Assembly (NCBI GenBank): GCA_965230395.1
Contig: CBDDKV010000002.1
Coordinates: 1,408,947-1,472,946 of the forward strand
DNA: 64,000 nt
Source: Bacteroidales bacterium
Lineage (GTDB): Bacteria > Bacteroidota > Bacteroidia > Bacteroidales > UBA10428
Reading direction: 5' to 3'
Shown: positions 4,210-57,400 of the stretch, one piece after another
Position numbering within the stretch: position 1 is the stretch's first letter
Layout: each line of letters begins with the position of its first letter
Translations under genes and position numbers: made by a program
The notes under the pieces: model-generated
Database searches by the model: none
Told to the model about the DNA's origin: nothing
Seen by the model: the letters and a program-made list of their open reading frames with translations, nothing else

Positions 4210-6645
4210 ATGAAGAAGCTTACCCTATTTAGTTTGATATTGTTCAACTCTTTCATGTTAATGGCCCAGTCACCTGTTATAGATAGTCTTGAAAACGAAT
4301 TAAAGCAACACACAGAGGTAGATACTACACGGATTAATATCTTAAATGCCCTTGCCTATAAGCTTCAATCAACCGATTCGGAAAGGGCAATGGAATACGC
4401 AAACGAAGCTTTGGCAAATGCAGATAAAATAGATGATGCTCCCTTGAAAATAGGGGCTTTACGTATGTTGGGAATTGTTTATTCAAGGAAGGGCGATTTT
4501 CAACAAAGCTTAAAATATTTTCAGAAAGCACTGGACATTGCAGTGGAAAACGACATAAAAGAAGGTTTGTTAAGGTGTTATCTTAATATAGGTATCGTGT
4601 ATTCAAACCTGGGGGATTTTTCAATGGCTATTGAGCATTATCAAAAAGCATTGGATATATCGGAAGAAACAAAAGATAACAATGGGAGAATGTTGTGCTA
4701 TAATAGTATTGGGGCCTATTATAATTCACAGGGGAATTATCCAAAAGCAACTGAATATCTTCAAAAATCATATTTGCTGGCAGAAGAGTTTGGACAGAAG
4801 AGGGACATGGCAACCAGTTTAAATAATCTGGCAAATATTGAGTACATCCAGGAGAATTATTCTAAATCGCTTGAATATCTTCATCAATCATTGAAAATTG
4901 ATGAGGAAATAGGCAACACAGGTGGAGTTGCAACCGAATTATATAATATTGGGTTTATCCTCAAAAACCAAAAGAAGTATTCGGAAGCATTTGGGTATTA
5001 TAAAAAATCGCTTGAGTTGAGAAGACAGGTGGGGGATAAGCCGGGGGTTGTTTATTCCTTAACCGGTTTAAGCAGCTTGTCCAGAATTGAAGGTAACTAC
5101 AAAGAGTCCCTTGATTATTTAGAAGAAGGTTTGCGTATTGCAGAGGAAATGGGGGACAATATACAGATTTGTATGGTAAAGCGGGGTATTGGAAAAGTGT
5201 ACCTGGAGAAACAAATGCCTAAAAAAGCACTGGGCTATGTGCTGGAAAGCCTTGAAATTGCGAAAACTCTTGGGATGACAGACGAGAAGAAGGACGTTAA
5301 CGAACTACTCTCGGAAATTTACGCCGAAATGGGCAGTTATAAAAAAGCCTATGAATTCCATAAAGCCTATAAGGAATTAAATGATAGCCTATTTAATAAA
5401 GAAAGTGTAAAGAAAATAGCAAACCTGACCCGTCAATACGAATTTGATAAGGAAAAACAAGCACTTGAAGCAGAACAGCAAAAGAAAGAGGCTGTTTATA
5501 AACACAAAATGAAAGAGCAAAAAACAATTAGCTATGCAGCCATTATCGGATTTATACTAATGGGAGTAATTGTTGTACTTGTATTTAGGGGACTTAGAAT
5601 TAAAAGGGAGTCGCACCGGCAGCTTGAAAAGCAGAAAAAGAAAATTGAAGAGGATAACAAAACATTAAAAAAACTGAATACCACGAAGGATAAATTTTTC
5701 TCGATTATTGCACATGATTTAAGGAGCCCCCTGGGGACCCTTCATAATATGGGAGAGATTTTATTGTTAAAACAGGGGCAGGTCGATGAGAACTACAGGC
5801 AGAGGGTTACAGAATCGTTGGTGGAAAGTACAAAAACAACGTTTAACTTACTGGATAACCTGCTAAAGTGGGCCAGGGCAAACCTGGGGCAGATGAACTT
5901 TAAACCGCAGAAGATTAAAGTAAACGATATCATAAATGAGAATGTAGACATTTACAGAACTTCCCTTGAAGCCAAGAATATAGGGTTGGTGAATTCTATA
6001 AAGCACGGTATTTATATTTATGGCGATCGGGATATGGTGAACACGATAATACGAAACTTGCTCTCCAATGCAATAAAGTTTACCCCTGAAAACGGAACAA
6101 TAGAGATCCTGTCTAAAAAAACAGCACCGGACAAGATAGAAATTGGGGTGTCTGATACAGGAATGGGGATGGATGCAGGTGCAATCTCTAAATTGTTCCG
6201 GGACGACACAAACTATACAACTTACGGAACGAATAAAGAAAAAGGATCGGGTTTAGGGCTAAAGCTTTGCAAAGAGTTTGTGGAGAAGAATAAAGGTGAA
6301 ATAAAGATAGAGAGTGAGCCGGGCGAGGGAACAATCTTCTGGGTTGTTTTTCAACTGGAAGAAAGTGAGGGAGAGGTTGATGTGAATGTCAATGCATCAA
6401 TTAAAAAGGTAAACAGGGACAAAGTGTTACCTGTGCTTACGGACGAGGAAAAAGGTTTGATTACAAAGGGCTTATATGCACTAAGAAATACCAGGATTTA
6501 TGAGATAAGTAAGTTAAGGAAGATACTGGCAGAAACAGAGAGCGACAAAAATGAGAATATTGAACGCTGGAAAGAGGCGGTAGAAAGGGCTGTGCAGAAT
6601 GAAGACGTTAAAGCTTATAAGGAGTTAATCGGGAGCGGGGATTGA
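4210..6645 (+). CDS. TPR-repeat sensor histidine kinase with a C-terminal helical extension
   Basis: Signal/TM at the N-terminus. About 9 TPR-like repeats (LNNLANIEY..Y.KSLEY..QSLKI). One TM segment (ISYAAIIGFILMGVIVVLVF) and a coiled coil. HisKA H-box FFSIIAHDLRSPL. HATPase boxes LLSNAIKFT, DTGMGM, GSGLGLKLC. About 90 extra residues follow the ATPase domain. Confidence 0.9.
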   Translation: MKKLTLFSLILFNSFMLMAQSPVIDSLENELKQHTEVDTTRINILNALAYKLQSTDSERAMEYANEALANADKIDDAPLKIGALRMLGIVYSRKGDFQQSLKYFQKALDIAVENDIKEGLLRCYLNIGIVYSNLGDFSMAIEHYQKALDISEETKDNNGRMLCYNSIGAYYNSQGNYPKATEYLQKSYLLAEEFGQKRDMATSLNNLANIEYIQENYSKSLEYLHQSLKIDEEIGNTGGVATELYNIGFILKNQKKYSEAFGYYKKSLELRRQVGDKPGVVYSLTGLSSLSRIEGNYKESLDYLEEGLRIAEEMGDNIQICMVKRGIGKVYLEKQMPKKALGYVLESLEIAKTLGMTDEKKDVNELLSEIYAEMGSYKKAYEFHKAYKELNDSLFNKESVKKIANLTRQYEFDKEKQALEAEQQKKEAVYKHKMKEQKTISYAAIIGFILMGVIVVLVFRGLRIKRESHRQLEKQKKKIEEDNKTLKKLNTTKDKFFSIIAHDLRSPLGTLHNMGEILLLKQGQVDENYRQRVTESLVESTKTTFNLLDNLLKWARANLGQMNFKPQKIKVNDIINENVDIYRTSLEAKNIGLVNSIKHGIYIYGDRDMVNTIIRNLLSNAIKFTPENGTIEILSKKTAPDKIEIGVSDTGMGMDAGAISKLFRDDTNYTTYGTNKEKGSGLGLKLCKEFVEKNKGEIKIESEPGEGTIFWVVFQLEESEGEVDVNVNASIKKVNRDKVLPVLTDEEKGLITKGLYALRNTRIYEISKLRKILAETESDKNENIERWKEAVERAVQNEDVKAYKELIGSGD

Positions 6646-6948
6646 TAAAATTTAAACGGTCTCTACATTTTTACACCAACACCCAACACCCAACACCCAA
6701 TTGCTAACAGCCAACCCCCAACCCCTCATCCAAAAACTCTGTTCTGGTGTCATTTTGAGCGGAGTCGAAAAATGCTGTAAATAAAATTCGTCAGGTGATT
6801 ATTGCCCCGTGAATCAGGGAGCAATGAGGCTGTTCACATTACTTCCACCGCAAATTCAAGGTTACCTCCTAAACGGACAGTGCATCACCTAATCTATTTA
6901 ATTGAAGATTGGAACGCGAAACATTCGTGCGCGAGTTGGAGCGGAATC

Positions 6949-7400
6949 TTAATCCCAGACATACCTTTCATCATATTCAACATGATATTTTTTCAGAAAG
7001 GCAAGATATTCGTCTTTATAGGTCTTCTTTTTATGGTGTTCATTTTGGTTTTGTATGTAATTGACTACAGTTTCAATCTCGGATGGATTCACTGAGAAGC
7101 TACCATATCCCTTTTGCCAATAGAACTTTTGGTATTTACTTCCCTTTGTTTTTATCCATTTGGAAGAATGAGATTTTAATTCTTCAATTAATTTCATCAA
7201 TGCAATTTTTCTTGATAGTAAACAAAGTATATGTATGTGATCTTTAACCCCTCCTACCTGAACAGGATTGCATTCCATGTTTTTACAGATGCCGCCTAAA
7301 TAGTTAAATAACTCGTCTTTTACTTCATTATCAATAAATGGACTACGGTTTTTTGTACTAAACGTAATGTGTAAATAGTTTTAACCAGAGATTGTGGCAT
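6949..7400 (-). pseudogene. RAYT / IS200-like HUH (Y1) tyrosine transposase, frameshifted near the 5' end
   Basis: The ORF 6949..7278 carries the HUH motif (DHIHIL) and the catalytic-Tyr region (VVNYIQNQNEHH). The same frame stays open up to 7380 (NYLHITFSTKNRSPFIDNEVKDELFNYLGGICKN). The only plausible start (ATG at 7400, MPQSLVK) is in another frame. Adding one A to the A4 run (plus-strand T4 at 7379-7382) gives MPQSLVKNYLHITFSTKNR. Confidence 0.8.
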
Positions 7401-7490
7401 AATTTAAAGCTTTATAGGATTACATGTTAAAAGAAGCTGAAAATAAGGAAAATATTATTATTCAAAGACTTGATCAAATACTTTGTAGTA

Positions 7491-8262
7491 AGGTTAAGGA
7501 TTTCGCGCCTTTGGCGCTTATTAAGCTAAGCGTGCAATAGCCATGAGCTTATACTCATGGGGGTTGATTACGCACCGTTGGTGCTTGGACTAAAGACAGA
7601 GTATAGGATGTGACTCCATTTTATTAGAGAAAGGCGCCAAGGATGTTTGGGGATAAAATATGGGCGGGTTGAGGTTAAGGATTTCGCGCCTTTGGCGCTT
7701 ATTAAGCTAAGCGTGCAATAGCCATGAGCTATACTCATGGGTGTTGATTTCGCACCGTTGGTGCTTGGACTAATGATAGAGTATAGGATGTGACTCCATT
7801 TTATTAGAGAAAGGCGCCGAGGATGTTTGGGGATAAAATATGGGCGGGTTGAGGTTAAGGATTTCGCGCCTTTGGCGCTTATTAAGCTAAGCGTGCAATA
7901 GCCATGAGCTATACTCATGGATGTTGATTTTGCACCGTTGGTGCTTGGACTAAAGACAGAGTATAGGATGTGACTCCATTTTATTAGAGAAAGGCGCCAA
8001 GGATGTTTGGGGATAAAATATGGGCGGGTGTTGAGGTTAAGGATTTCGCGCCTTTGGCGCTTATTAAGCTAAGCGTGCAATAGCCATGAGCTATACTCAT
8101 GGGTGTTGATTTCGCACCATTGGTGCTTGGACTAAAGACAGAGTATAGGATGTGACTCCATTTTATTAGAGAAAGGCGCCAAGGATGTTTGGGGATAAAA
8201 TATGGGCGGGTGTTGAGGTTAAGGATTTCGCGCCTTTGGCGCTTACTTGCTTTCGTGCGGAG
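7491..8262. repeat. tandem repeat type A, about 181 bp x 4.4 copies, built from REP-like hairpins
   Basis: Unit starts (AGGTTAAGGATTTCGCGCC) at 7491, 7672, 7852, 8034 and 8216; the copies differ by only a few substitutions or indels. Each unit holds hairpins GCGCC-ttt-GGCGC, CCATGAG-ctata-CTCATGG and GCACC-gtt-GGTGC. Confidence 0.9.
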
Positions 8263-9221
8263 TAACCATAAGCTATACTCATGGATGTTTATTTCGCACC
8301 GTTGGTGCTTCAGGATATCAAAAAATATAGATAGGGGCAATGCCCTGCTGTTCTTATTCGGTGAAATGGTAAAGCGCCAAAGGCGCATAATCATTAACCC
8401 GGCCGTTATGGCCGGGTTATCTCAAGGCATCTCTAAGCGCCAAGGGCGCGTAATCCTTTGCCTGCTTTCTTTATAAATGGCAAACACAAAAATACCCCGA
8501 AGAATTAATCCCCGGGGTACCAAGCGGACATTCAAGTGGATTAACACCTGCCTGTCCGGTATTTATCACAGATATCTGAAAATAACCATAAGCTATACCC
8601 TTGGGTGTTGATTTCGCACCGTTGGTGCTTCAGGATATCAAAAAATATAGATAGGGGCAATGCTCGGCAGTTCTCATTCGGTGAAATGGTAAAGCGCCAA
8701 AGGCGCGTAATCATTAACCCGGCCGTTATGGCCGGGTTATCTCAAGGCATCTCTAAGCGCCAAGGGCGCGTAATCCTTTGCCTGCTTTCTGTATAAATGC
8801 CAAACACAAAAATACCCCGAAGAATTAATCCCCGGGGTACCAAGCGGACATTCAAGTGGATTAACACCTGCCTGTCCGATATGTATTGCAGATATCTGAA
8901 AATAACCATGAGTTATACTCATGGATGTTTATTTCGCACCGTTGGAGCTTCAGGATATCAAAAAATATAGATAGGGGCAATGCTCTGCTGTTCTTATTCG
9001 GCGAAATGGTAAAGCGCCAAAGGCGCGTAATCCTTAACCCGGCCCTAACGGCCGGGTTATCTCAAGGCAGCTCTAAGCGCCAAGGGCGCGTAATCCTATG
9101 CCGGCTTTCTGTATAAATGCCAAACACAAAAATACCCCGAAGAATTAACCCCCGGGGTACCAAGTGAACATTCGGGTGAATTAACACCTGTCTGTCCGGT
9201 ATTTATCGCAGATATTCGAAA
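8263..9221. repeat. tandem repeat type B, about 320 bp x 3 copies; shares one module with type A
   Basis: Unit starts (TAACCATAAGCTATAC) at 8263, 8583 and 8903. It shares the CCATGAG..CTCATGG + GCACCGTTGGTGC module with type A. It adds two direct copies of AAGCGCCAARGGCGCGTAATC (the reverse complement of the type-A hairpin), CCCGGCC-gttat-GGCCGGG and TACCCCG...CGGGGTA. The array ends one base before the stop codon of the giant gene. Confidence 0.9.
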
Positions 9222-12200
9222 CTATTTACCTGTTCTTACAACTTTTATGGTTTCCAGCTTATCAGCGGTGCGGACTTCGATGATAAATGCTCCCTGGTTA
9301 ATAAACCTGTTCAGTTGAAGGGTTTCAACCAAATTAATGGAGTGCTTGCCTTCTGTAAGTTCCATGTTTGTCGAAACCAGCTTTTGTTGCAGTACATCAT
9401 AAACCGAGATCTCAACGTTTGATGCCTGGTCTAATACCATATCAAGATTTACCTGCCCGGCAAACGGGTTCGGGTAAACATGCAGGCTCATGCCGGTCTC
9501 AGCAATTTCTGCTTCTTCGATGTTTGTATTATGAACCATAAACCCATAAGGCTCAGAAACACTTCCAATCCGGTCGTTGATTCTGAAGGTCAATTCGTTG
9601 CTGATGTCGAATTCTTTCTTCGTTTCGCCAGGGCAGAAGCTGAATGTTAATTGTTCATCCTGTTCAGCATAAACATACATAGATACCATGTGGCGGTTCA
9701 CTTCAGGAACGTAGGTTACATTTCCAATCCCGCGCACACTTCCGTATTTGTCAAAAGCAACCACTTTATCGTTTTCAGAATAGTCGGAGACTCCGATTAC
9801 TTCACCAATGATGGTTGCGTTATGTTCATAGTCAGAAGGTTTAACCTCATAAGCAAATGAACTTGCCTTTGCCGATTTCAGGTATTTATTATTGCTCTGC
9901 GGATAGGTAGAAATTCCCTCTCCTTCAAGGAAGGTAAGAATGTCCGGGGCATTTGCTTTGATTTTGTATGCCCTGAACGGCCTGATTTCTTCCAGCGACC
10001 CTATCCATTTTTTATGGGTATATTCGGCCACACCATCCACTGATTTAATTACGGCCGAACTTGCACTTCCGGTATTAAACTTCATGGAGCCGTTTATGTT
10101 CTGGCGCGATTGGACAGGACTGCCAATTAAGAACCATCCATTTGCTTCGAACAGGTTAAACCCGTTGCGGATACGTTCTTCATTTCCGGAGAAACGAAGG
10201 GCATTGGCTTTCCCAAGATAAATCCAGTATCCCTCGCCCGGGGTTATGGTGTCAACATCGGAGAAAGTTATCCACTTACCGGCTTCCGCGCTATATTGAG
10301 CCATGCTTTGGTTGTTGTGCCCTTTCAGTAAATCGCCATCGGTTAAGTCCATTCCATTGAAAACAGCATTGAATGTTGGGTTTTCAGGAAGGGCATTTAG
10401 CGAGAACATATTCCAGCCCTTATCGAAATGGATGTACCGAACCCTGTTTTCTGCAGATTCTACGGTTAAATGATGAGCTTCTACCGAGCTGCCATAAACT
10501 CTGTCGATAGCAAAAGTTGCCACTGAGTCTGCCTTGGCGTTGTATTCCATGCCTGTACTTGCGTCCCAGTAACGGAACTCAATGGTATCGTTGATGTCGC
10601 CATCGTTGCCCCATACGTTCATGTACAACAAGTGATGGCCACCAATTTTCCGGAACCTGGCAACACCTCTTACGGTATTATTGATAACAGCAGCCACAAC
10701 ATCATTGGTGTCGGTTATTTGTATATCATCAACTTTCAGGTCGGCAATAACATTCATTGACATGTTATAGTCTGATAAATCAACAGACCAGCCGACAGGA
10801 TCGGGCAGGATGGTTACTTCAAAAACAGTTTTAGCACTTATATGGCCGTCCATGTTGGCGTATAAGGTATCGAAGTAAGTGCCCGCAGATTTGTTGTTGC
10901 TGTTAAACTGAAGAGAGATGTTACGTTTTCCATCGTTGAACAGCATGGATTTCCCGTTGGTTACAGGAAGGCCTTTATCATCGTAAACCTGAACCCATGA
11001 AGCATCCCAACCGCTAAGACTGAATCGGGTAATCTGTTCCACAGCACTGGTAACTTTAGTTTCAAAATCGTGGGTGCTGTTGCGGTTCATTGAGATTTGC
11101 ACATAGTCTTCTGTGAAAGTTACGGGTGAGCAATTTACCCTGAATGACCAACTGAATGGTTCGGCCATTCCATTTCCGGCAAGGTCTTTCACATCAGCAA
11201 TGGTAATCTTCAGCGTATCGCCATGAATAGCTTCCAGTGCAGTATCTTCTATATCGAAATACAGTTTACCTCCACTACAACGTACAGAAAAATTCACTTT
11301 GGTGCCGGATAGTGTTTCAACAGAGAACAGGCTGGTATCCATAACCTGACAGTCGATATTATCGTTGAAAGTAACCAAAATATCTTCTCCCGTGCGAAGG
11401 ACTCCGTCTGCTTCCGGTTGCGGGCTGCCAAACACGGCCATTGAGGCACGGTCAATCTTACCTTTTACGGTATTTGAATATGTATAGCCAGATTTTCCAC
11501 CTTCGGCCATTGCACGAAGAATGTATGTTCCGTCTACAACTGAGGCATCGTTGGTAATGTCCCAAACCATCGGATAGGTTGGCACCGGATAAATATTGCC
11601 GTATTCTTTCTCGAAACGCACTAATGAGTCGGCGGTTACGGTGCCAATATCATACCATTTGTCTGCCCCACCTCTTTTGTATTGAAGAATGATGGAGTCA
11701 AGAGAAAAGTATTTATTTTCAGCATAGAAGTCGGTAAGTGTTACCGGCAGTACTTCCTGCTTTCCTTCAGGGGCCTTGTTGATTTTCCAGTCGGTGTTTG
11801 GTTCAAAAACAGTAACGGGAGAACAGGGTTTCCTGAAGTACACTTTTAAGGGAATGGTGTCGCCAACGAATGGTGAAGATTCACAAGATGCCCTTACCAC
11901 TAAGTTCAGGTCTTCGTAGTTGAAGTTTGGCATACGTGCCCATACTTTTACCTCTGCAACCTGACTTTCTCCTTCGCGAATGTATATTTCTTCTCCCTTG
12001 GTTGAAGAAAGTCGTGTCTGGCCAATCTTTATATCGGCACCTTTTGAGTTGCTGTTGTGTGCCATGTAGATTTTTACCAACCGGCCATCGTTTGCCCTTG
12101 TTGCCCCATTGGAAACGGAGAACTTAAATACAGCGGGTTTTTTATGGTCTACATCGTATTGTATGTTGTTGTAGGTTACATTGACCGTGTCATCACCTTT

Positions 12201-15200
12201 TACTTCCGGAACAACCATGCTGGTGTAAATCTGCGAGCGGTTAATAGTACCTTTTTCATACGGACACATACTGTACCCGCCAAATACCTGGAAGTATGGT
12301 GAATAACCGGAGCGTGTCGGGTCAAAAATCATCACACTGTATTCATCCAGATAATCGTCATCGTTAAAGTAGTACCCAAATTTCTGGGAATTACCAAAGG
12401 TGGAAGATTCCGACTCGGTATAGGAATATTGATGTGATGCTCCAACACTGGCTTTAAGCCGGGCAGCTAATTTAAAGTAAGATTCAGTAACGAACTTGGC
12501 TTCAAAACCAACAGACGCATAAGGTGTATTGTGTTTGATACCGGATTTATTGTCTACCTTAAACGTTTTTATTTCATAAAAGGCATCCACACCAACACTT
12601 CCTTTACCTCCGCTAAAGGCGTTTATTTTGTAGCTTCTGCTTCCAAACCACTTTGTGTTGGTTTCCCTTGTTATTCCGGTACCGGCCACAAAGGTTTCGT
12701 TCCTTACTTTTGCTTTTATGAGTTGTGATTTTAAGGTGTCTTTTATATCCGTGATTTCCTTATTGTCGCCCCAGTCGCTGCCGGCAGATGTATACATTCC
12801 AACAATGCCATAGCTAAGTTCTTTGAGGTCAGAATTGCTGGGATTGTTGCTTAAGTTCTTCCATCCTTCAAAGTTGGTTGTGTACCAATCGTTTGTTGCA
12901 TTCATTGGATCTTGTTCCGGGTCTGTACTAAATAATATTCCCGATATGTCATCAAGAGCACTGTTGTATGCGTCTAACTGACTTGGTACCCAGTTGATTT
13001 CCAGAGAACCATCAATGTAACTGTTGGGGTCATCTTTAAATCCGGAGGCTACCTGAATCGTGTCTCTCGTTTTATTCGGGTCGAATTTGAAGAACTGGTT
13101 ACAGAAACTGCACGCTCCACTTAGGTTTTCTGATGAAACGGGGCTTGTTTTTTTCAACCTGTTCTGATCGTAAATTATACGGCACACATCATAATGTGGC
13201 AATGATTGGGTTGAATACATTTTAAGGATGCTGAGCCAGTTGTCCCTGACCGATTTTAACTTGCCGGCGTCTTCCTGCTTTTTCTGAAGAAGTTCGTCAG
13301 ACATATTCAGGTTATCGATTTGTGTCTGCAGATTATCAATTTTATCGTCTAAATCCTTCAGTTTATCATCGATAACTCCCAGTGTATAGGTCCATTGTGT
13401 GTTCACTCCGTCCCAGTTAATGGTGTTGGCATGATATTCCACAATAGCACAGGTTTCTTCTTCTTCGGTTTCAATAATGTCAATTCCTTTTCCCACACTA
13501 ACCTGGTAGGCAAGGCCTACACCACCGATAATGTCTGCATAGTGTTGCTGCATAGAGGTTTCATGTGTAGTACTGAGCAAAGGTTTTTTAGATGTTTCCA
13601 GTTTTTCTTTGAATTCATAGGTTACATCGAGGTTAAAGTTATTATTGAATTGTGCTCCGTGTTCCCAGCTGTGATCGGATATGAGGTTTATAACAGCCAG
13701 GGGAATTGATACATGGCCGTTGCCATATTCGGTAGCTTTTCTTCCCTTGTTGAATGAAAAGGATTTTTTGATGGTTGTTCCTTTTTCAATGTAGCTGTAA
13801 CTCTGATCTCCCGGAGGATCGCGCAGGACAAACATGGGCAGGAGGACTTCATTTTTATTGTCATCTTCTGTCGGGTTGACCAATACGTCTTTTCCTTCGA
13901 GACTTTTCACCCCAAGTGTTAAAATAGGTTCTACCCTCTCGGCCAAAAATTCAGGGCTTGGGTTTAACTCGGCAAAGTACTCTACCTTAAAACTTTGCAG
14001 GTAAGGGTATACCGGAAGCGGTGCGCCACCAATAAATCCATATTCAACGGTTCCGTTTGTATTTACCGTATCAACAAATACATGGGAGTTATAGGCCTCT
14101 TCATAAGCACCTTCGCTGAAAGTACCAGAGGCTCCATCGTTGGTTATTACTACATATCCGCTTTGTACCGGACATTCTTCACCATCGAACTCCTCGATAA
14201 CCTGTACCTGGATGTTTTTATAAGAAGAATCGGTTTTTGCAATATAGAACCCGGGGGCTTCTCTAAAATTACATACATCGGATAGTTCTTCTCCCACTGT
14301 GTTCAGGATTTTTATCTCCGGTGTTTTGTGGAAGATAAAACTGACTGTTGTGTCGTAGTTGAAATTACCATTGTTGAACACATAGTTCTCATATTTTCCC
14401 TGGTAAGGAATTTGTTTTGAGCGGGTGCGGAAATAGTCGATGTATAACTTGGATGAAAGATCGAGGGGGTTGGCGTCAATTACACGAATACTATAATTGG
14501 CCGGGGCCAGTTTTACATTGAGCTTTCCGGCAAAATTGGTTTCGTATTCTTTGTAGTAGCTGTTATCAGTGCTTTGTACCGCAATGACGAATTTATGGTT
14601 TGGCAGGGCATAACCACAGGTGTTTTTTACCTTAAGGTTAAGGGAGTAATGGGTTGTATCGGCAAAGTTTACTCCTTCTTTTATTGGGTTGACTTCATCG
14701 ATTGGGAAAGCAACACTATCGGTGTTTGCTGCAAAATGCCAGTATGCGGTCGGATTGCTGCTGTTTGTGTTCGAGTTTTCGTGATACGTGTCAGCGATAA
14801 CTGCATACTTTGTGGTGTTCATAACTTTCCTGATTCCGAATTTGTAACTTCCATCGTCATTTGTTCTCACTGTTTCGGTTTGCAGTGTTGTGTCCCGTGC
14901 ATCTAAATAAAGAAGGGTTATTTTTACGCCTTTCTGCCCGCAATTACTAAACTCGTTATATACTTTTCCGGAAATGTATTTTCCGTTCAGGTCGAGTATG
15001 TCTTTGGCCAGGCCTCCTCGTTTATCTTTCTCAAGGAGTACTTCCTGGTTGTTGTTTACAAAGATGTGATTGTCATAGCTTGCGGCAACCGTGTAGGTAA
15101 TTCCTTCTTCTGGTATATCTATCCCATTTATAGTGTAGTTACCATTTTTGCCTGTTACGGTTGTAAAGGTTGTATATGGTTCGGTGCTGTTTTGTCTTCC

Positions 15201-18200
15201 CTTAATTTTTATTGTTGCTCCTTCAACCGGGTATTGGGTCTCATATGTTTTTACCCCCCCTGTTAAAGTACCCATTATTTTAGAATGACCTGTAGCCGTG
15301 TATAGGGCAAAAGCATTTCCATTTGCATCCTGCGGAACAACTTTATAAATGTACTTCGCCCCTTCTTCAACATCGTCGTCCATGTATGAAGTGTATGTTT
15401 TATTCAAAACATCAAGCAATGTGTATGGCTTTTCGGGGTTGGCATAACTCTTCCTGTAAATGGCTACCTGCGCGGGATGGGTATTTGTGCTGCCTAAGTA
15501 TTTCCATTTCAGTTTTACCTGGTCCATGTAGGTTCCGTCTGAAGCAGTAAAATAATCCAGTTTTTGTGTGCCGGACTGTCCCTGCGGGGTTGTAGAACTT
15601 GTAACCGGACGGGTTGTGAGGTGTACTTTCCCGTTTATAACCCGATAAGAATACAGCGCGTAGTTTTCTTCTCTGCTAATATGGTCGATATACCGGGTTG
15701 CTGATGATGTCAGCGTGTCAATTGCAGCTCCGTTTCTTTTTAACACAAATCCATCGCAATATTCCCAGTTGTAGTTCCACCTTAGTTCTACAAGGTTTAT
15801 GTCTGGCGAAGTGCAGGTTAAACTGTTAAATGCCGGGTATTGCGGGAAGGTTGCTGTGGTTTTCCTTACCGATGATGTATACTCTTTTTTGTCATTGCCC
15901 CTGTTAGTAAATGCTACGATATAAAAGTCGTACCGGGTATTCGGAATTCCGTTTTCAAACGTGTAGCTTAACTGTGATGCGTCGAGTTCGGCTATTTTTG
16001 AATAATCCAATCCTTTTCCGTTTTCACGGCCATAGAGATAGAAACCTCCTATGTTGTAATTGGATGGATATTGCCACGATATTTGTAATACATGGTTTCC
16101 GTTGTTCCCTGCTGTAAAGTTTGAAACGGGTTCAATATGTGGGAAGTATGCGGTGTCGGTAGCTGCTTCGGAGTAATACTTATCGTAATCGTTCTGGCGG
16201 TATGCCATTACCTGGTACTCATGGATGGTTTCGGGAAGCCCTGAAGTATCGATAAGTACAAAACTTGAGGCGGTATCTTCCACATAGGTTAAGGGCTCAT
16301 TATTTCTCATGATGAAGAAACCATCAACATAGGGTGCTGTATATTCCCAGCTTAACCTCACTTTGTTTTCAGAAATAAGGCTTCGCGCTTCCAGGTTCTG
16401 AGGTGTGGTAAGGTAAGGGAACCTTGCTGATGCGGTATATCCACGGGTGTATTTCCGGGTGGTTTTATTATATCCTTTGATGGTATAATTGTACTCGAGT
16501 CCCGGAACACCTGTTGTGTCGAGGAACGATGTGTTTTCTCCGGCTTTAACAACTCCAATTAATTTATACAGACGGTAAATCTCGAAAAAGTCAACTTTAC
16601 CGGTATATCCCCAGTACAATTCAATCCTGTTGCTGTCAATTTGTTCAACAATGTCAATTTGATCGATGGTTGCATACCCGGGATATTTGACTGAGTATAG
16701 GGCTTTGGTTGTTGCCGAGGTATCTTGTTCGTATGGCGTTGAGAGCATGGCTGCAACTCCGTAGTTGTAGATATAGCCCGGCATAGCAGTTCTATCCGTA
16801 TATTCAAAAGTGTTGTTGTCATCAATTTTAGCAATAAGTTGTTCGTTTCGGTATACGAGGAAGCTGGTGTAATTTTCACTTTCCGTCATCCAGCTTACTT
16901 TAACATTTTCCTGGTTTTCACGGGCAATGCCGGATACCGATAATATTTCAGAGACTTTCAATCTGTTTGTGCTACCGGAAGTATTATGGGACAGCTTGTC
17001 AATAAGCTTAACCATAGTTCCTTCACCTTCCGGTTCAATGTCAGCACTTACATTATCAAACCTGTGATCCGGATGGTATGCACTAACAGTAATCCCTGCC
17101 GACCGGTTCCTGTCCATGGGCAGGTTGTCGAACCTGAATTCACCGTTTGCATCTGTAAGGGTTTTTACATGGGTTGTTTTGCCATATGCCTGGAAACGAA
17201 CGGTTATGTCAACATTTTTTATCCCTTCATATTGGTTATGGGTCAGAACTTTTCCTCCGATAAAATAAGGAGAACTTACCGAGCCAAAGGCATAAATGGG
17301 GTCGCTCATTCGAATGTCGGTTTCACTTCGTCTCAGTTCTGCCACAATGTGGTACTTGTATTCTTTTCCGGGCTCCAGGGTTGAATCGTAATCATAGTAA
17401 GTCCGTTTGAAATGGCCTACAGTATCAACCAATACTCCGTCTCTGTAAATCCGGAAGGTTGGCTTTATGTAAAGCGGGTACTCCCATGACAGACGGATAT
17501 AATCTTTGTATATTCCCTCTGAAGCAGTAAACCGGGCGGGGTTTTCCAATGCATTTGTAAACTGAACTTCCTGATTAAATAATGAAGCAACATTGGTATA
17601 GGAATCATCTTTCTTTACCTGGAGATGGACGTGGTAGAGTTTATCTACTGTGTGCGCCGGAATGTTGTGGTATTTTCGTGTGGAAGGGGGCAGCTCAACT
17701 TCGGTTACAGCCAATGGGCCGGAATGGTTATGGCACCTTCTGAACAGCACGGCATCAGGAATTTGTCGTTTGGAAATTCCGGGACCGGAATAGGATACCG
17801 TAAGGGACTGGCCATACATTCCCTGAAAATAAGAAAGCCTGATGGGTAAGTAGCCAGGCGCTAACCGCCTTGTTCCGTTGCGTTCAATTGTGCCGTGTAC
17901 TCCATCGTTATTTACTACTTCTTCTCCATTGATGTAGAGTTTGCTTCCATCATCAGATGAGGTGTAAAAGGTGTAATCTCCTGCTGTTTCAATTTTAATG
18001 TATCCTTCATAAATGAAACCACTGTTTGGGTTCATGCCTCCGTTCTGGAAATTTGAAACGATAATATGACCTGTTGGCTGCCTGTTGTCCATTTCATGGA
18101 CAGAATTGGTAACTGCGTTATAATGGGCACATGTTAACCCGTTTTCAAGGCATGCATCTTCTATCGATAACCTGAACCCGTCCTGAAAACCATGATCATA

Positions 18201-21200
18201 ATCCCATGAAAGGTCTAATGATGTCATTATATCATTGTTTCTGCTCAGCGTTGTTAATGGTGCTGCGGGATACGAGGCATTTGTGGCAGCAATATCAGAA
18301 TAAACGGTATCGGTTTGTTTCTTCGGATTGTTTAACCGGAATGCCCTTATTCCATATTCATGGCCTTCACCAAATGCACTTCCTGATTGGTCGGTATATT
18401 CATTGGGCGAATTTTTGGCAACTCTGTTTAATACCGTCCATTCGGTTGAACCTGGTTCTCTTCTTAACACTTCAAACCCATCGAAATTATAGGTTTGTTT
18501 CTCTGTATTATAATCCCAACTGACTCCGACGGATACGTTTGCACTGTTGGCCGCAGCAATAACACCTGAAGGTGCAATGAGTTCCGGATAAACGGTTTGT
18601 GCTGAAATCAGGTTGGAGTAAGCAGAATCTTTACCATTGTTTAAGGTGTACGTTTTAATACTGTAGGTTGTGTTTTCACCCGGAACGCCATAGGAATCGG
18701 TAAATACCTGCGAACCCGTTTTTGTTGAACCCATATGTTTTCCGTTTCGGTAAACAACCAGTCCGTCGTATTCTTTATCGTTTTTAACCGTGTTGACCGA
18801 CAAGGAGATTGAGGCATTGGGGTTTTGCGCAATATTGATACCCGACAGATTGGAAAGCATAGGAATGTTTATTCGTTTTTTTGCTTCCTGGTAGTTTAAT
18901 TTACTCGATTTCCTGAACGGGCGATAAGCAATTACATGATAAATGTATTTCTCCCCGGGTTGAACCGTTGTGTCTCTATATGTGCCAATAAATGGTTCAG
19001 AGAGATATTTCAGGTCATTTTCGCTAAGAGGGATGCCAAAGAATTCCCCTTCTTCTTCGTTAAATTCCAAACCACCGGATTGATCCAATGTGACCAGGTA
19101 TTCCAGATCGTTTACAGAAGTGTAAACATCATTGGTGCTATGGCGATATACATTAAATAAAAGATTATCTTCTTTATGGTTATAAACCCAGCTTATATTG
19201 GCCGTTTGTGCCGATGTATATGCTTTAAATACTTCCGGGTAGAGATAGTCTTCCTGTTCTTTTGCTTCGAAACCGGAATTATCATAAATAACTATATTCT
19301 TCAGTCCTCGGTTTCGTCCGTCTAATGTGTATGAAGGTTTTTCCGGTTCTAATTCGTGTTTGCCATACTTAGCGGATAATGTAACGTTTGCCCCGTACCC
19401 GTAGTACACATTGCTAACCTCAAAATATCCGACATTATTGGTTACTGCCGGGTAAGTATAGGTTTTGTCTTTTACTAAAACCGAAACGGTTACTTCAGCA
19501 TTCGGGACACAGTAGTTTTCGTTTCGTGTACATACATAACCCGAAATTATACCATTTGGGGCAATAAATGAGGTGTCACTTACACCGCTATATTCTTTTC
19601 CGTTTTGCAATAAACGTACCTCGTAAGTTTCTATAGAACCAAACTTGGGCCAGCAATAGCGTGCAGACTGGTTCCCGTTAAAGATATCACGGGTTGTGAT
19701 GTACTCTATAAATTCTCCATCACGATAAAGTTTCAGGCTGTCGCAGCGAATGCTCATTTCCCCGTCACCGAGAAAGTTGGGCAGGTTTATGATTACCGTG
19801 TCGTTTAATGCATGGGCTGATATGCTGTAGTTGTATAAGCGCCCCCGGCCGGTGGCAACGTCCAGTTCTTTGTTCAGTTCGTCGCTGTAAATAGTGACCT
19901 TGTAGTCGTAATTTGTACCTACTTGCGGGCATTTCGCATTATTAAATTCAAAACAATCTTCGTACGTATATGCTTCGTTTACCGTTGCCAGGTATTTATA
20001 CGCTGATGCTGATGCTTCTTTTCGGTAGATTTTGAACACTTTGTCTAAATCGGACGGAGTGGACCAGGAGAGGGTGATTTTACCCGGATCGTTTGTTGTG
20101 ACATCGTTCATTCTTCCTTGTACGTAAGGAGTGGTAATGGCTGTAGAACTTAGCGAACTGCAAACCGGGTCACCGAATGAGTAGTCGTAAATATTAAGGG
20201 TGTAGTCCCGCCGTCTGTCCGGTCCCAGGAACTCACTGATGCTGTAGTCAAAAGTACGGTTATGAATGGCATTACTTTCAAAATAGCTCCATTCGCTGTT
20301 TACTTTTGTGGCGTTCAGGCCTGCATGTGCATGGGTTGCAGAAAGGTCAACCGGAAGGTTGTTTCCGGTAATTGCATCCAGTTTAAAGTAAGCCAGCAGT
20401 GTTTCTTCATTTCCGGTGCGTTCGTAGCGGTGGTTGTACATTACCTCCTGCGATGTGCGTACTTCGCTCCAGATACGCCATTCGGAGATTGCTGCACTTA
20501 CTGCATGGCCTGCACCATCGCCGAAAGCTTTGCTGAAATCCCATTCCGGCGATGCATTAACACGGCCTTTTTTTTCTCCGTCAACATACAAATCCAGTTT
20601 GCTGTCTGAAGAAGATACAAAGGCCAGGTGGTACCAGGTGTCTGTAGTGTTCAGGGCATAATTAAAACTTTTTACCCTGTTTCCATCAAAGATTTTCAGG
20701 GTATTGTCTGCCTTGTCAATAAAAACACGGGGACCTGCATTGCTGTGTAAGAGATACATATCCCTTCCAAGTGTTTTGGCCGTATTTTCAAGCCTTATCC
20801 AGAACTCATTGGTCCACGTAGCCCGGTGATATTTTGAGTTCAGGGCTGAAATATCAATATGGCCATTAGCGTTATCGAAGTTGAGCTGAAATTCTGAACT
20901 GTACTTATTGGCAGCCAGAAATGCGTCAACATCCCTGGACATAATTACCTGATCATATACAATCTTATTGTTGGTGTAATCTTTAACTACAAAATATACA
21001 TCGTTGCCACTGGGGGATTTCAGGCAGTTGGCATCAATTTTCCAGCTTACGTTGGAATACGCGTCGGACTGGTACTGACTAGACATAAGACCAAAATACA
21101 TTGTTTTACCGGCATCGGTGAAGAATGTAGTTTCATCGTATTCGTTGTATACGGAGGTTGAATTATAGGCTTGCAGGCAGTATTCGTAAGTTACGCCGCC

Positions 21201-21782
21201 AGTCAGGCCAACTTCACTTTCTGTGATTTCGTTGTTTTTGTCGATGTATGTAAAACCGCTGTCTGTGAAGCTTGTCTGATCTATCCCGTTTTTATTTTCG
21301 GGGAAATCCGCCAGCAGAAAATCTTCAACCGGGTTATGGTTTTCATCGAAGGACCTTCTGAAAATCCGGATACGGTTCAGGTAGTCCGGTAGTTTATTGG
21401 TCCAGGTAAGAATGACCTGTCCGTATTTCTCATTATCTGAAGCCGAAAAGTACAGAATTCCGTCGGATGCTGCTGTTGGCTTCATTTGTATACCACTGTT
21501 GCTTCCCGGTTGAATTGTGCTTTTGGTTGTTGTCCCCTTTGGTCTTAGCTTAATGGATGTTGTTGCAAAAACCAAAGCAGGTTTATTTTCATCGCCGGTA
21601 TAAGCGGATTGAATGGTCACATTATTGTATCGCAGGGTATCCCGTACGTTAGCGTTCGTTCCATCGTAGTGCAAATCGCTGCTGTATTTGCCTACGCTGG
21701 TTTGGGCAATTGCACTGGTATCAAAAATCAAGATACACAGTATCAGTTGCGCCATCCATATATATAGTTTATATGTTCGCAT
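9222..21782 (-). CDS. giant (4186 aa) secreted multidomain surface protein, T9SS cargo
   Basis: Single uninterrupted ORF with a signal peptide ([18 protein letters not shown]). It contains a LamG-like module. There are at least 12 FN3-like modules with a recurring pattern (..SW.Y....F.IYR....Y.D....G..Y.Y.V.A). It also has carboxypeptidase-regulatory-like beta-sandwiches and a PA14 module. Further in are an unassigned central module with a coiled coil and Ig-like repeats, then a C-terminal T9SS sorting domain. Confidence 0.92.
   Translation of the reverse strand: [4186 protein letters not shown]
9225..9494 (-). other. T9SS type-A C-terminal sorting domain of the giant protein
   Basis: [19 protein letters not shown]...[14 protein letters not shown]...[23 protein letters not shown]. 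The YPNP start, alternating beta pattern and position at the extreme C-terminus fit the domain. Confidence 0.85.
11850..13920 (-). other. central module of the giant protein without recognisable family (approximate borders)
   Basis: Runs from [23 protein letters not shown] to ...[10 protein letters not shown]. It contains the coiled coil [38 protein letters not shown] (about 13255-13385). It also has Ser/Gly/Tyr-rich amphipathic beta stretches ([30 protein letters not shown]). Confidence 0.5.
17745..18045 (-). other. PA14-like module of the giant protein
   Basis: [43 protein letters not shown]...[24 protein letters not shown] is the characteristic PA14 pattern. Confidence 0.8.
20420..20830 (-). 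other. LamG / concanavalin-like lectin module of the giant protein
   Basis: WTNEFWIRL...[15 protein letters not shown]...[25 protein letters not shown]...[16 protein letters not shown] is the typical LamG_3-type pattern. Confidence 0.75.
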
Positions 21783-23582: not shown

Positions 23583-24676
23583 AGCTTTGTTTTTGTTACC
23601 TGGTTTTGCTTTGTTTTTATGTATGTATTTGTTGGTTAGGTATGTAACACTTTTTGTGTGTGTCTTTTATCAAAAGTGCCCGGAAGAGAGAAAAATGAAT
23701 TTTGTATTCGATAAACCGGATTATTGCTCCGACAAACCAGATTATGATGAGGCCTTTCCGGATAAACAGACCATGTCTGATTTGTCTCGATGTTTCGGGA
23801 AGGACACACACAGCCAATGATTAATATCCATACCAATTCTCAGATCTGGTCATAAATTATAAACCTTTCTAACTATGCAATTTTATAGCTGTCTTTTTGG
23901 GGCTTTAAGAAAAAATTATAAAGACAAAGGTTTGGCAATAGTTCCTGACGCTTGGCTTTCATTGTTATATTATTTGAAGGGAATAGAACAGTTCAATTTT
24001 ATATATTTTGTCATTCAATGCCCCCAAGATTTTTCAAATTCTACCAAGTGTAATGACAGGGAAAATTGTAATTTTTTGCGCCTTGGCTTATACAGTGTGG
24101 CTGGTCCTCGAATAGTGCATTTTGCCTGTAATCTGTAATTGTGTGAGAGTGCTCAAGTTTTTCTTTTTATTCACCTGTTTGTGTCTTTAATTCATGTTCA
24201 TGAACTCCCTTTGGTCGGTACCATTGATGAAAAAGAAACCAACCGAATGAAATGAGTTCACGAACATTCCTAATACTATACACTTGTGAGTAAAAAACCT
24301 AGAAAAAAGTAAACTTGTCGGTTTTCCATTGCATACCCGACTCACGTGGCACATATTTTTTTTAGCGGCCTCTCAAAACATTGTCCCCTTTTCTTGTTTC
24401 CTTTACCTTAATATTACTAAATTATCAATTGGTTGATTTTTAGATAGGTATGTAATTCTGTCATCGGTAGATCCAATACTCTTTTAATGGATTACGCACC
24501 TTTGTGCTTGTTGTTGGAGTGGGTGGATAGGGTATTTTGGTGTTATTCGGATAAAGTGCCAACGGAGGGTAATTCCCGTGCACTACAAGTATAAAACTAA
24601 GACAAGATTCTTACCTGCAACGGTTTGTTGAATTAGTAAATCGTTTTTGTAGCACAATATTTTTTCATGTTAATAC

Positions 24677-27273
24677 ATGAAATTAATTTTGTGTCAAACA
24701 AATAACAATGGAATGCCAGGAAAAACTACAAACGCTATTTTTTTATCCCTGATCTTGTTTCAGATATTCACCTCAAATCTTCAGGCTAACGAAAGAAGTA
24801 ATTTACCATATATTATTGATAGTCTTGAAAAAGCGCTTTGGGAGCATGATAATTATGACACAACAAGGGTTAACCTTCAAATAGAAATTGCCAAGAAATA
24901 TTTTACAACAGATATAAATAAGCTAAAAGAAAATTCAGAAACAGCTATTGCTGTTGCTGAGTCAATCGGGTATGAAGCAGGAAAAGCAAAAGGTTTATTT
25001 TTGGTAGGGGTTTACTATAGAATAAATAGCCAGTATGATTCTGCATATTATTATTTTGAGTCAGCCCTGAACATATTTAATGAGCAAGAACTTGCTATGG
25101 ATGCCGCACGATGCATAATAGTTTGGGGAATATTTCCACTTCCCGGGGAAAGTACTCCAGGGCCAGAGAACATTATAAAATGGCAAGGGAGATTTTTCAT
25201 GAGAAGTTGAATTATGGAGGAGAAGCAGCAGTTTACCTTAATCTTGGCCGTATTGCAAATAAAAAGGGGGATATCCCAAGGTCTATTGAATTATTTAATA
25301 AGTCGCTGGATTTATACACAAAGGTAAAGGATAAGCCCAATCAATGTCTGTCACTAAGATTTCTGGGGAGGGCTTATAAAAAGTCAGGGAACTATTCTAT
25401 TTCAATAAAATATTACATGGATGCACTTGATATATCGAGGGAGTCGGGTAATAAAAATATTGAGTCGGTTGTATTACAGTCGGTAGGTGATGTGTTTTTC
25501 GAGCGGGAAGAATATAAAGATGCTCTCCGTTATTATGTGAATTCACTGGATATTACCAGGGAAATAAAAAGGGCACGAGATCTTCCCCAGAGATGCAATA
25601 AGGTAGCGCAGACTTATATGAAACTCGACAGTCTGGATAAAGCAATCGAATACTATACCAAATCGGTCAAATCAACCGGATATGGAAAAACGCATTTAAG
25701 CCTGGCCTATGCTTATGAAGGAATTGCTAAGATTTCTTTGAGGAAGGGAAGTCGGGAAGAAGCATCAAAATATTATAATAGAGCTTTACATGAAGTGAGG
25801 GGGACGAATGATGAGTTAGGCATTGCTGTAATTAACAATGGTTTTGGGGAATTCTTGTATCAGGACAGAAATATAGCAGTAGCTTTAGAATATTTTAAAA
25901 AGGGCTTAAAATATGCTCAGAAGGCCGGGTCAGTTTTAGAAGCCAGAAATGCCTATAAAGGGTTGGCAACTATTTATGAAGAACTTGGGGATTATAAAAA
26001 CGCACTGGAATGCTTTAAGCTGTACAAGCATATGACCGATAGTGTTCTGAACACAGAAAATACGAAAAACATTACACGCGAAATAACGAGATTACAATAT
26101 GAAGAGGAAATTAAGGAATTAGAACAAGAACAAAAAGACAGGGAAGCTGAATTGGAAAGAGAAAAACAAGAGAAGGTTATAATGCGCAATACATTTATAA
26201 TTGCTTTTTCCTTCCTGTTTATACTTGCAGCTTTTATCTTCTTTAGTCTGCAACCAAAAAGAAAGCACAATAAATTACTGGAAAGACTTAACAGTGAGAT
26301 TCTGAAACAAAAAGATGAGCTAAAAAAAACAAATGAAAAGCTTGTTGAGTTAGATGAGTTCAAACAAGGAATGACCGGTATGATTGTTCATGATCTTAAG
26401 AATCCGCTTAACGCTATTTTAAATCCATCCGCATCTCTCCCGCTTGAGGGACAGCTGAAAATGGCAAAGCAGTATGGAAAACAAATGCTCAACATGATCC
26501 TTAATATTCTCGACTTGCAAAAGTACCAGGATACCAAAATGGTTCTTGACTTGTCCGCTTGTAGTATTGTTAAGTTAATTAATAAGGCAATAGAGGAGGT
26601 TCAGTTTTTATGCGAATCAAAAAATATATCTGTAAAAAACAATGTGTTTTCAGACTTTGGAATAATGGCCGATTCGGAGATTCTTAACAGGGTGTTTATT
26701 AATTTGTTGACTAATGCTGTTAAGTTTTCACCCAGTGAAGGGGAAATTATCATTAAGGTAGAAATATTACCGGATACAGGTATGCTTAAAATTTTTGTTT
26801 CTGATGAGGGGGCAGGTATTCCGGACGATAAACTGGATGAGGTTTTTGATAAGTTTGCCCAGGTACAGGTAAAGGAATCAGGGACAGTAAAATCGACAGG
26901 GCTGGGGCTTACCTTTTGTAAAATTGCTGTTCATGCACATGGAGGAGAAATTAGAGTGGAAAGTGATCTGGGGAAAGGTTCAACGTTCTGGTTTACATTA
27001 TGTCCTGCAAATTCAGAAGAAACAGTTACTGCTGAAATAAAACCAGTTAGCGCAGAAAAGAACTTACCAAGGTTAACAGAAAAAGAAAAGGAAGGGATAT
27101 AGGCATATTTGAACCAACTAAGGGAAACAAAAATTTATCATATAAGCCGGTTAAGGAAAATCCTGTCGGAGGTAGACGCAGCAGGTGATGAAAATATGAA
27201 GCATTGGAAAGATTCCGTTGAAAACGCAATCTACTTAGAGAATAAGGAGGAATTTAAAATGTTGGTAGAATAA
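24677..27273 (+). pseudogene. TPR-repeat sensor histidine kinase, paralog of 4210..6645, with a frameshift and an in-frame stop
   Basis: ORFs 24677..25210 and 25111..27102 overlap in different frames, and the TPR text continues across the junction near 25105-25116. H-box MIVHDLKNPL; ATPase boxes LLTNAVKFS, DEGAGI, STGLGLTFC. After the TAG at 27100-27102 the same frame continues to 27273. It encodes AYLNQLRETKIYHISRLRKILSEVDAAGDENMKHWKDSVENAI. This matches the C-terminal extension of the intact paralog (LYALRNTRIYEISKLRKILAETESDKNENIERWKEAVERAV). Confidence 0.8.

Positions 27274-57308: not shown

Positions 57309-57400
<92 letters not shown>

Follow-up and report, generated by a model that had tools for sequence, protein, structure and literature searches.

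The window considered here is a stretch of 64,000 nucleotides of Bacteroidales DNA (GenBank contig CBDDKV010000002.1), in which a frameshifted gene for a Y1/HUH transposase is preceded by a 1.7-kb tandem array of short hairpins that reaches the end of a giant surface-protein gene. The classic example of a transposase domesticated together with its genomic repeats is that of repetitive extragenic palindromes (REPs) and their REP-associated tyrosine transposases (RAYTs), for which most knowledge comes from Proteobacteria and class-2 enzymes. The locus in the window is probably a decayed REPtron-like locus, in which an IS200-like Y1 gene of subclass 1.2 stands beside a cluster of its family's cognate REP-type element, resembling a bacterial interspersed mosaic element (BIME). 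Its principal features are listed here, the array limits having been obtained with Tandem Repeats Finder (TRF) and by alignment of the units.

6930-6948, minus strand: decayed gene-distal hairpin (GATTCCGCTCCAACTCGCG) directly past the transposase stop codon; foot and 5' arm kept, 3' arm lost
6949-7400, minus strand: frameshifted Y1/HUH transposase gene (PF01797, E 6e-27; NCBIfam transpos_IS200)
7418-7423, plus strand: orphan foot GATTAC, located 17 nt before the ATG; its hairpin, present in homologues, is missing here
7491-8262, plus strand: type-A array, four units of 180-182 bp and a 46-nt partial fifth
8263-9221, plus strand: type-B array, three units of 320 bp
9222-21782, minus strand: giant surface-protein gene of 4186 amino acids (PA14, Laminin_G_3, Big_5), with an intact type A sorting domain of the type IX secretion system (T9SS) at its C-terminus

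The transposase gene and the hairpin array

The gene at 6949-7400 matches the PF01797 Y1_Tnp profile at 94.7 bits (curated cut-off, 23 bits), which identifies it as a HUH/Y1 transposase, and its DHIHIL and NYIQNQ segments align to the HUH motif and the Y127 region of IS608 TnpA. The frame-corrected product has 150 amino acids (MPQSLVKNYLHITF...YDERYVWD), carries the motifs DHIH, WQ and YIQNQNEHH, and ends in a tail, ...EYDERYVWD, that is common to the window protein and its homologues. Quentin et al. (2018; PMC6006769) described TnpAY1 subclass 1.2 by DH[IV]H, WQ and YIKNQKEHH, a median length of 148 amino acids, low copy number, and occurrence in Cyanobacteria and Bacteroidetes, and gave Y---NP as the signature of class 2 (RAYT/TnpAREP). 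Judged by its motifs, the window protein fits the IS200-like TnpAY1 subclass 1.2 and not the class-2 RAYTs. The best solved structural relative by sequence is IS608 TnpA (PDB 2A6M/2VJV, E 5e-6), followed by other IS200/IS605 TnpAs, and E. coli TnpAREP (PDB 4ER8) was not matched in the PDB search even at E <= 10. The first-pass annotation of this DNA had proposed a solitary transposase of the RAYT kind; the solitary Y1/HUH enzyme without a TnpB partner was upheld, and the RAYT assignment was not, given the Y---Q--HH motif and the two sequence comparisons with solved structures. It is the single Y1 gene of the window, and no large adjacent open reading frame (ORF) besides a histidine kinase was found; weak tblastn matches of the transposase inside the B units (E 0.9-1.9) were treated as chance. 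For subclass 1.2 the survey in PMC6006769 lists 'REP: no', its Table S1 of manually identified REPs holds none, and a search of the literature found no REPs linked to this subclass.

The array begins 91 nt upstream of the transposase ATG, in agreement with the roughly 90 bp first given, and ends 3-6 nt from the stop codon of the giant gene (9222-9224). TRF reported 7491-8310 with a period of 180 (4.5 copies, 95% matches) and 8263-9215 with a period of 320 (3.0 copies, 93% matches), and the unit alignment resolved the A part into four complete units (7492-8216) and 46 nt of a fifth (8217-8262), and the B part into three units (8263-9221). The two-tier organisation that had been noted at first, with units of about 181 bp followed by three of 320 bp, is thus real. 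The A units are 96-98% identical in pairwise comparison and the B units 90-95%, the differences in the alignment being unit-specific substitutions and indels of 1-2 nt.

Both unit types are assembled from hairpins of a few kinds, given below by position. Bit scores marked R1 refer to a covariance model that was built from 30 modules.

7499-7519, 7680-7700, 7860-7880, 8042-8062 and 8224-8244, plus strand: small hairpin, GCGCC type (GATTTCGCGCCTTTGGCGCTT)
7566-7586, 7746-7766, 7926-7946 and 8108-8128, plus strand: small hairpin, GCACC type, with an accessory hairpin before it (R1 38-60 bits)
8290-8310, 8610-8630 and 8930-8950 (the last with a GGAGC mismatch), plus strand: further small hairpins of GCACC type, likewise with an accessory hairpin before them (R1 38-60 bits)
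8372-8392, 8435-8455, 8692-8712, 8755-8775, 9012-9032 and 9075-9095, minus strand: small hairpin, GCGCC type
7541-7560, 7722-7740, 7902-7920, 8084-8102, 8266-8284, 8586-8604 (decayed) and 8906-8924, plus strand: accessory hairpin 1, CCATGAG-ctata-CTCATGG
8398-8416, 8718-8736 and 9038-9056, minus strand: accessory hairpin 2, CCCGGCC-5 nt-GGCCGGG
8491-8521, 8811-8841 and 9131-9161, minus strand: terminator-like hairpin (13 pairs, then TTTGTGTTTG)
24491-24510, plus strand: solitary degenerate small hairpin (GATTACGCACCTTTG-TGCTT; R1 18 bits, E 0.007)

The small hairpin has the consensus GATTWC-GCNCC-NTT-GGN'GC-TT, that is, a 5-bp stem preceded by a conserved foot, and is present in 18 copies, 12 on the plus strand and 6 on the minus strand. 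A palindromic 21-mer had been singled out as occurring in about 11 copies, with opposite orientation in the two unit types; 11 exact matches were found in the window, five in the A part and six in the opposite orientation in the B part, against 0.01 in shuffles of the window. The GCACC hairpin is the same element as the 21-mer hairpin, with a compensatory change from G-C to A-T in the middle pair of the stem. A relative of it near 24491 had also been reported, and this copy is real but degenerate, having lost 1 nt from the 3' arm; it is the sole R1 match outside the array at E < 0.01. Identity with the CGTC-type REPs was rejected, since those have stems of 8-9 bp, A-T at the first positions and CCA tails (Di Nocera 2013).

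Each A unit consists, in order, of a small hairpin, a 21-nt spacer, the CCATGAG/CTCATGG accessory hairpin, a 5-nt linker, a second small hairpin and a spacer of about 101 nt. Its small hairpins are 67 nt apart, matching the gene-proximal doublets of relatives (see below), and the A unit is the canonical direct doublet plus about 101 nt of lineage-specific spacer. The B unit has a plus-strand part, with accessory hairpin and small hairpin followed by a 61-nt spacer, and a minus-strand part, in which an inverted doublet (small hairpin, CCCGGCC hairpin, small hairpin) is followed by about 125 nt containing the terminator-like hairpin; in the third B unit accessory hairpin 2 has kept its stem and changed its loop. 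As had been noted at first reading, the two unit types share a module, here found to measure 45 nt with 93% identity and to comprise the CCATGAG/CTCATGG accessory hairpin, linker and small hairpin. Homology between A and B units, and between the fourth A unit and the partial fifth, ends exactly at the edges of this module, at the base of the accessory hairpin on one side and just past GCTT on the other. When folded as single-stranded DNA, single units are more stable than their shuffles (z = -3.5 for A, z = -4.25 for B), and in the B-unit fold the plus-strand and minus-strand small hairpins pair with one another, much as in the inverted REP doublets termed REPINs. With 18 hairpins in 1.7 kb, in mixed orientation and joined by linkers, the array has the form of a BIME cluster.

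Other identities for the array were discarded. Its ORFs (116, 136 and 95 amino acids) were rejected as genes, being without a Pfam match above cut-off and lying in repeats whose 181-bp period is not a multiple of 3, and an array of the CRISPR kind or of integron attC sites was rejected on the period, the lack of spacers or ORFs and the lack of cas or intI genes. When the A and B units were compared by blastn with 197 loci (designated L and a number below), only a hairpin part of 21-30 nt was common to them, and no close relative of the locus as a whole was found.

The initial annotation further supposed that the array fills the whole gap to the stop codon of the giant gene and would form its 3' untranslated region. 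The first part is correct. A single long untranslated region is unlikely, because the transcribed strand of every B unit contains a terminator-like hairpin, in which the 13 pairs lead into a T-rich tail; the first is reached about 60 nt past the stop codon of the giant gene. Terminator-like sites number 16 against 2.9 expected, and promoter-like sites show no excess (4 against 7.3 expected).

The hairpin family and its transposases in other genomes

Two samples were used to examine the hairpin and the transposase independently. The protein-first sample comprised 80 metagenome loci (271 kb in total) chosen by the transposase protein alone, of which 77 were scored upstream and 73 downstream for the strict 13-nt hairpin within 300 nt of the gene. 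The hairpin-first sample came from an exact scan with GATTWCGCRCCNTTGGYGCTT, taking one genome per species, and yielded at least 117 stretches of 8 kb. The full module that emerged has a variable accessory hairpin of 7-8 bp, a conserved linker of about 11 nt ending in GATTWC, and the small hairpin GCNCC-NTT-GGN'GC followed by TT; a second small hairpin is often found about 67 nt upstream of the first, giving a doublet.

In the protein-first loci the strict hairpin was present upstream in 52/77 and downstream in 42/73, and R1 gave 294 matches over the 271 kb. Distances are fixed on both sides. Ahead of the gene the hairpin ends 15-20 or 36-39 nt from the ATG and a further copy is seen at 80-89; past the gene it starts 4-15 nt from the stop codon, which it often overlaps as TGATTAC, and a further copy is seen at 70-82. 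The hairpins of the two sides have opposite orientations, the feet pointing toward the gene in both. Homologous genes are therefore flanked by their own inverted REP-type elements, as in a REPtron, and the window retains only remnants of this arrangement beside its gene. From the opposite direction, 9-11 of the 117 listed hairpin-first stretches encode a transposase homologue of 68-77% identity, where, by our own estimate, a single-copy gene would give about 0.2. The first-pass annotation had named the hairpins as companions of the transposase, and had held that their absence beside homologues and elsewhere in the genome would tell against this; they flank the homologous genes in relatives and are dispersed in multiple other genomes.

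A more distant homologue is informative about the specificity of this pairing. The plasmid CP012861 of Persicobacter sp. JZB09 (L198:19880-20550) carries a subclass 1.2 homologue of 54% identity (YIQNQKFHH) between inverted arms of 43 nt, in which the grammar is unchanged but the small hairpin is another, GTTGA-ACCCT-TTC-AGGGT, as is the accessory hairpin, CGATGGGT/ACCCATCG. R1 found nothing in the 40 kb around this homologue and is thus lineage-specific, as the flanks there keep the grammar with another hairpin. Such a pattern is what co-variation of enzyme and substrate would give.

The hairpin-first matches listed are mostly from Bacteroidota, with others from Balneolaceae, Chlorobiota and Acidobacteria. 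Within single genomes, 8-kb stretches with the 21-mer number at least 22 in a Bacteroidales metagenome-assembled genome (MAG), at least 17 in a Balneolaceae MAG, at least 14 in UBA6161 and at least 9 in Draconibacterium orientale. In D. orientale DSM 25947 the module lies mid-way in a non-coding dispersed element of about 385 bp (L038:4824-5207), which has at least 10 copies in D. orientale and Draconibacterium, 94-97% identical, and is partly reiterated in L065 with a period of 184 bp.

Tandem arrays are likewise widespread. Basic arrays with one module per 57-70 bp were detected by TRF at L135, L137, L138, L127, L049, L056 and L087, and arrays of higher order at the following loci, also by TRF:

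L130: 310 bp x 3.1
L004: 236 bp x 3.7
L065 (D. orientale): 184 bp x 3.0
L087: 283 bp x 2
L127: 275 bp x 1.8
L143: 213 bp x 1.9

The array at L130 begins 2 nt past the stop codon of an intact transposase gene, and its unit contains one doublet per orientation, much as does the B unit of the window. An equivalent higher-order organisation has been described for GTAG REPs (Di Nocera et al. 2013, PMC3733652). The macro-satellite arrangement had at first been considered unusual, a view that does not hold: as such arrays recur in relatives, including the Lentisphaera seed sequences of Rfam family RF01687, the arrangement is typical of the hairpin family.

The two helices of the module are supported by covariation, although the alignment for it was fitted to the structure of R1 itself: 89% of cells are paired as against 70% in shuffles, double changes occur in 13/13 pairs, and the covariation score is 0.41 compared with 0.03-0.08 in slid-partner controls. 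The middle pair of the small stem varies among C-G, A-U, G-C and U-A. There were 25 G-T cells and 36 A-C cells, and so no excess of strand-specific wobble pairs. Because of this, and of the modules being in both orientations around one gene, a hairpin acting at the level of DNA is favoured over one acting as RNA.

This bears on an existing family, the Acido-Lenti-1 motif (RF01687; gathering score, 37 bits), which was described from Acidobacteria and Lentisphaerae, in some cases close to group II introns, and was rated as probable RNA (Weinberg et al. 2010, PMC2864571). With gathering thresholds, Rfam reported only a tRNA in the whole window. In a permissive search the B-unit doublets at 8693-8736 and 9013-9056 matched RF01687 at 21.4 and 19.6 bits, below gathering. 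A score of 40 bits is reached by the modules that immediately precede tnpA homologues in L124 and L117, copies in Acidobacteria MAGs retrieved by the 21-mer (L067, L107) score 45.3, 39.5 and 37.6 bits, and the Lentisphaera seed rows of the family contain doublets and a tandem spacing of about 192-200 bp. The window element is thus of the same broad kind as RF01687, its own copies falling below the membership score.

Two observations were made in passing at these loci. In one Bacteroidales MAG (L047:1770-1990) a complete inverted bracket surrounds a transposase gene reduced by an internal deletion to about 25 nt (ATGCCTCAATCGTTAGGGATTAG, then TGATTAC...), and another locus of that MAG (L037:4835-4960) has only about 60 nt in common with it, a piece that starts just beyond one foot and stops just beyond the opposite hairpin; the impression is of a REPIN-like inverted pair, now without a gene, that arose from a REPtron and has its breakpoints at module edges. 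A cobalamin riboswitch (L138:2172-2358, 96.7 bits) precedes a transposase homologue by about 650 nt, probably without any connection to the hairpin family.

Origin of the array and state of the locus

Taken as a decayed REPtron-like locus, the region could have arisen as follows. The hairpins would fold on single-stranded DNA, and the transposase would recognise hairpin and foot, on the model of IS608 TnpA and of E. coli TnpAREP, which do so with their own substrates. Cutting and rejoining at module edges would allow modules to spread. Once in direct orientation, modules would permit unequal recombination or replication slippage to amplify whole inter-module segments, and such amplification would have given the periods of 181 bp and 320 bp in the window, with the terminator of the giant gene for the T9SS surface protein being copied as part of the 320-bp unit.

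The class-2 REPtrons and BIMEs of E. coli and Pseudomonas (PMC3333891, PMC3733652, PMC6006769) are among the closest known parallels. Common to both are short extragenic palindromes with a conserved unpaired foot, dispersed in multiple copies (for the present family, in four genomes other than that of the window); a Y1 gene, presumably single-copy here as there, bracketed by inverted palindromes, with a hairpin that co-varies with the enzyme; and dimers and larger clusters, the dimers being tandemly reiterated with flanking DNA. The differences are that the enzyme here is of class 1 (IS200-like, Y---Q--HH) and theirs is Y---NP, that the foot is GATTWC and theirs is 5' GT[AG]G, that the stem has just 5 bp and the loop 3 nt, and that a variable accessory hairpin is added and the doublets are often direct, not inverted as in REPINs. 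The likeness to TnpAY1 subclass 1.2 extends to length, motifs, C-terminal tail, occurrence in Bacteroidetes and the lack of tnpB and of IS200-type ends; unlike the 'REP: no' entry of that survey, the homologues examined here are bracketed by a conserved hairpin family. With the IS200/IS605 elements and their non-autonomous derivatives the locus shares the HUH and catalytic tyrosine motifs (YIqNQ aligning with YIeNQ of IS608 TnpA) and, by prediction, the use of small subterminal DNA hairpins as substrates, where short sequences nearby determine the sites of cleavage. However, the flanking hairpins are inverted here and lie on the same strand in IS200/IS605, tnpB is lacking, and the gene is apparently of low copy number and not mobile as a unit. 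The TTAC within the foot resembles the TTAC target of IS608. Acido-Lenti-1 has the same two-hairpin architecture and a similar linker, and was filed as a probable small RNA (sRNA) without a link to a transposase, whereas the evidence here favours a DNA element.

Several points weigh against this interpretation. With the local gene frameshifted and its proximal hairpins lost, the link between gene and array rests on position and on homologues; in the 62 kb of window outside the array there is one degenerate copy only, dispersal being seen in other genomes. About 30% of the protein-first loci have no strict hairpin on a given side, many of these being short contigs or having diverged hairpins. 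The covariation was measured on an alignment fitted to the model's structure, and Rfam classes the module type as an sRNA gene. The activity predicted for subclass 1.2 proteins is borrowed from better-known relatives. Finally, growth of an array by recombination needs no transposase, and a part for the enzyme in making the array, as distinct from seeding the modules, is inferred.

In the strongest competing account, intergenic DNA was simply duplicated in tandem by slippage or unequal crossing-over and the hairpins are passive, for example as terminators or sites for host proteins, neither made nor moved by a transposase. The 2-10% divergence of the units is as for old duplications, TRF also fits a superperiod of 362 bp, the shared 45-bp module would serve as a recombination substrate, and the local transposase gene is broken. 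Plain duplication nevertheless leaves unexplained the hairpin brackets at fixed distances in 50-70% of independent loci, the co-varied hairpin of the 54%-identical homologue, and the homology breakpoints at module edges (A/B units, A4/A5 and L037/L047), and it is considered unlikely.

Somewhat less probable still is that the array is a set of tandem genes for small structured RNAs of the Acido-Lenti-1 type, with a functional RNA and an incidental link to the transposase (if, for instance, the elements insert near each other). This account can draw on the related modules that pass the RF01687 gathering score (those of L124, L117, L067 and L107), on the rating of the motif as probably RNA by Weinberg et al. 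(2010), on the strong covariation, and on the terminator-like hairpin in each B unit. That terminator, however, is no part of the module and has the strand of the giant gene, the window copies reach just 21 bits in Rfam, promoter-like sites are not in excess, and G-U-compatible cells are not in excess over A-C. Modules of opposite orientation at fixed distances around one gene are also difficult to accommodate, and the association with the gene holds from the hairpin-first and protein-first tests alike. An array wrongly expanded by the assembler hardly enters into consideration: tandem repeats are error-prone in assemblies and this one is known from an assembly alone, but the artefact is rejected because the units carry their own substitutions and indels of 1-2 nt, and a distinct junction unit (8217-8262) joins both array types and similar arrays occur in many independent assemblies.

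Within the favoured reading of a decayed REPtron-like locus, the state of the local copy can be described further. Compared with homologues, the transposase gene is split over two frames by one A missing from a run of five (7379-7382), the 5' ends of homologues reading GTTAAAAACTAC and that of the window GTTAAAACTAT; the missing A may reflect either genuine inactivation by mutation or an error in sequencing the homopolymer. R1 gave no match at 6930-6948 or at 7418-7423. Present-day activity of the local copy is doubtful, because the gene is frameshifted and both gene-proximal hairpins have decayed; the gene is probably dead, and the array is most likely a fossil that now changes by recombination only.

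Clusters of repeats of this kind are already known, as are hairpins flanking Y1 transposase genes in many bacteria; what appears to be new with respect to the literature consulted is a REPtron-like link between subclass 1.2 and a hairpin family filed in Rfam as sRNA. A wider proposal, for which the case seems to us evenly poised, is that subclass 1.2 represents a second, independently domesticated IS200-derived lineage that keeps its own REP family (in Bacteroidota, Balneolaceae, Chlorobiota and probably Acidobacteria and Lentisphaerae), with Acido-Lenti-1 as its DNA substrate and arrays such as this as its BIMEs. A REPtron grammar in a class-1 subclass suggests that domestication from IS200 to RAYT-like enzymes was convergent or proceeded in steps. 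The hairpin is very short, and the descriptors used so far would miss REPs of this size; foot and 13-nt hairpin also form a compact substrate for biochemistry. As an Rfam sRNA family is probably a DNA repeat, annotation in several phyla is affected. Locally the meaning is modest, the array being probably a stack of terminators and hairpins downstream of the giant T9SS gene and likely a hotspot for copy-number change.

Neighbouring genes and other features of the window

The giant gene bordering the array is complete, because the T9SS type A sorting domain at its C-terminus is intact, and a likely side effect of the array is to terminate or insulate transcription between this gene and the DNA downstream. 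On the other side of the transposase gene, an ORF of 811 amino acids at 4210-6645 is similar to the FimS sensor histidine kinase of Porphyromonas (NCBIfam NF053520), its 331 bits lying below the cut-off of 600. A second histidine kinase, of TPR type, is encoded at 25111-27102, and both kinases fit a Bacteroidota origin. Between the end of the first kinase gene (6645) and the 3' end of the transposase gene, the heptamer CCAACAC is repeated 6.7 times at 6676-6722. Farther away, a unit of 288 bp is repeated in tandem 4.1 times (97% matches) at 36268-37440, inside an ORF of 1044 amino acids (35745-38879, minus strand), and presumably encodes a repeated protein domain of 96 amino acids. The sole Rfam match of the window at gathering threshold is the tRNA gene at 57309-57397.

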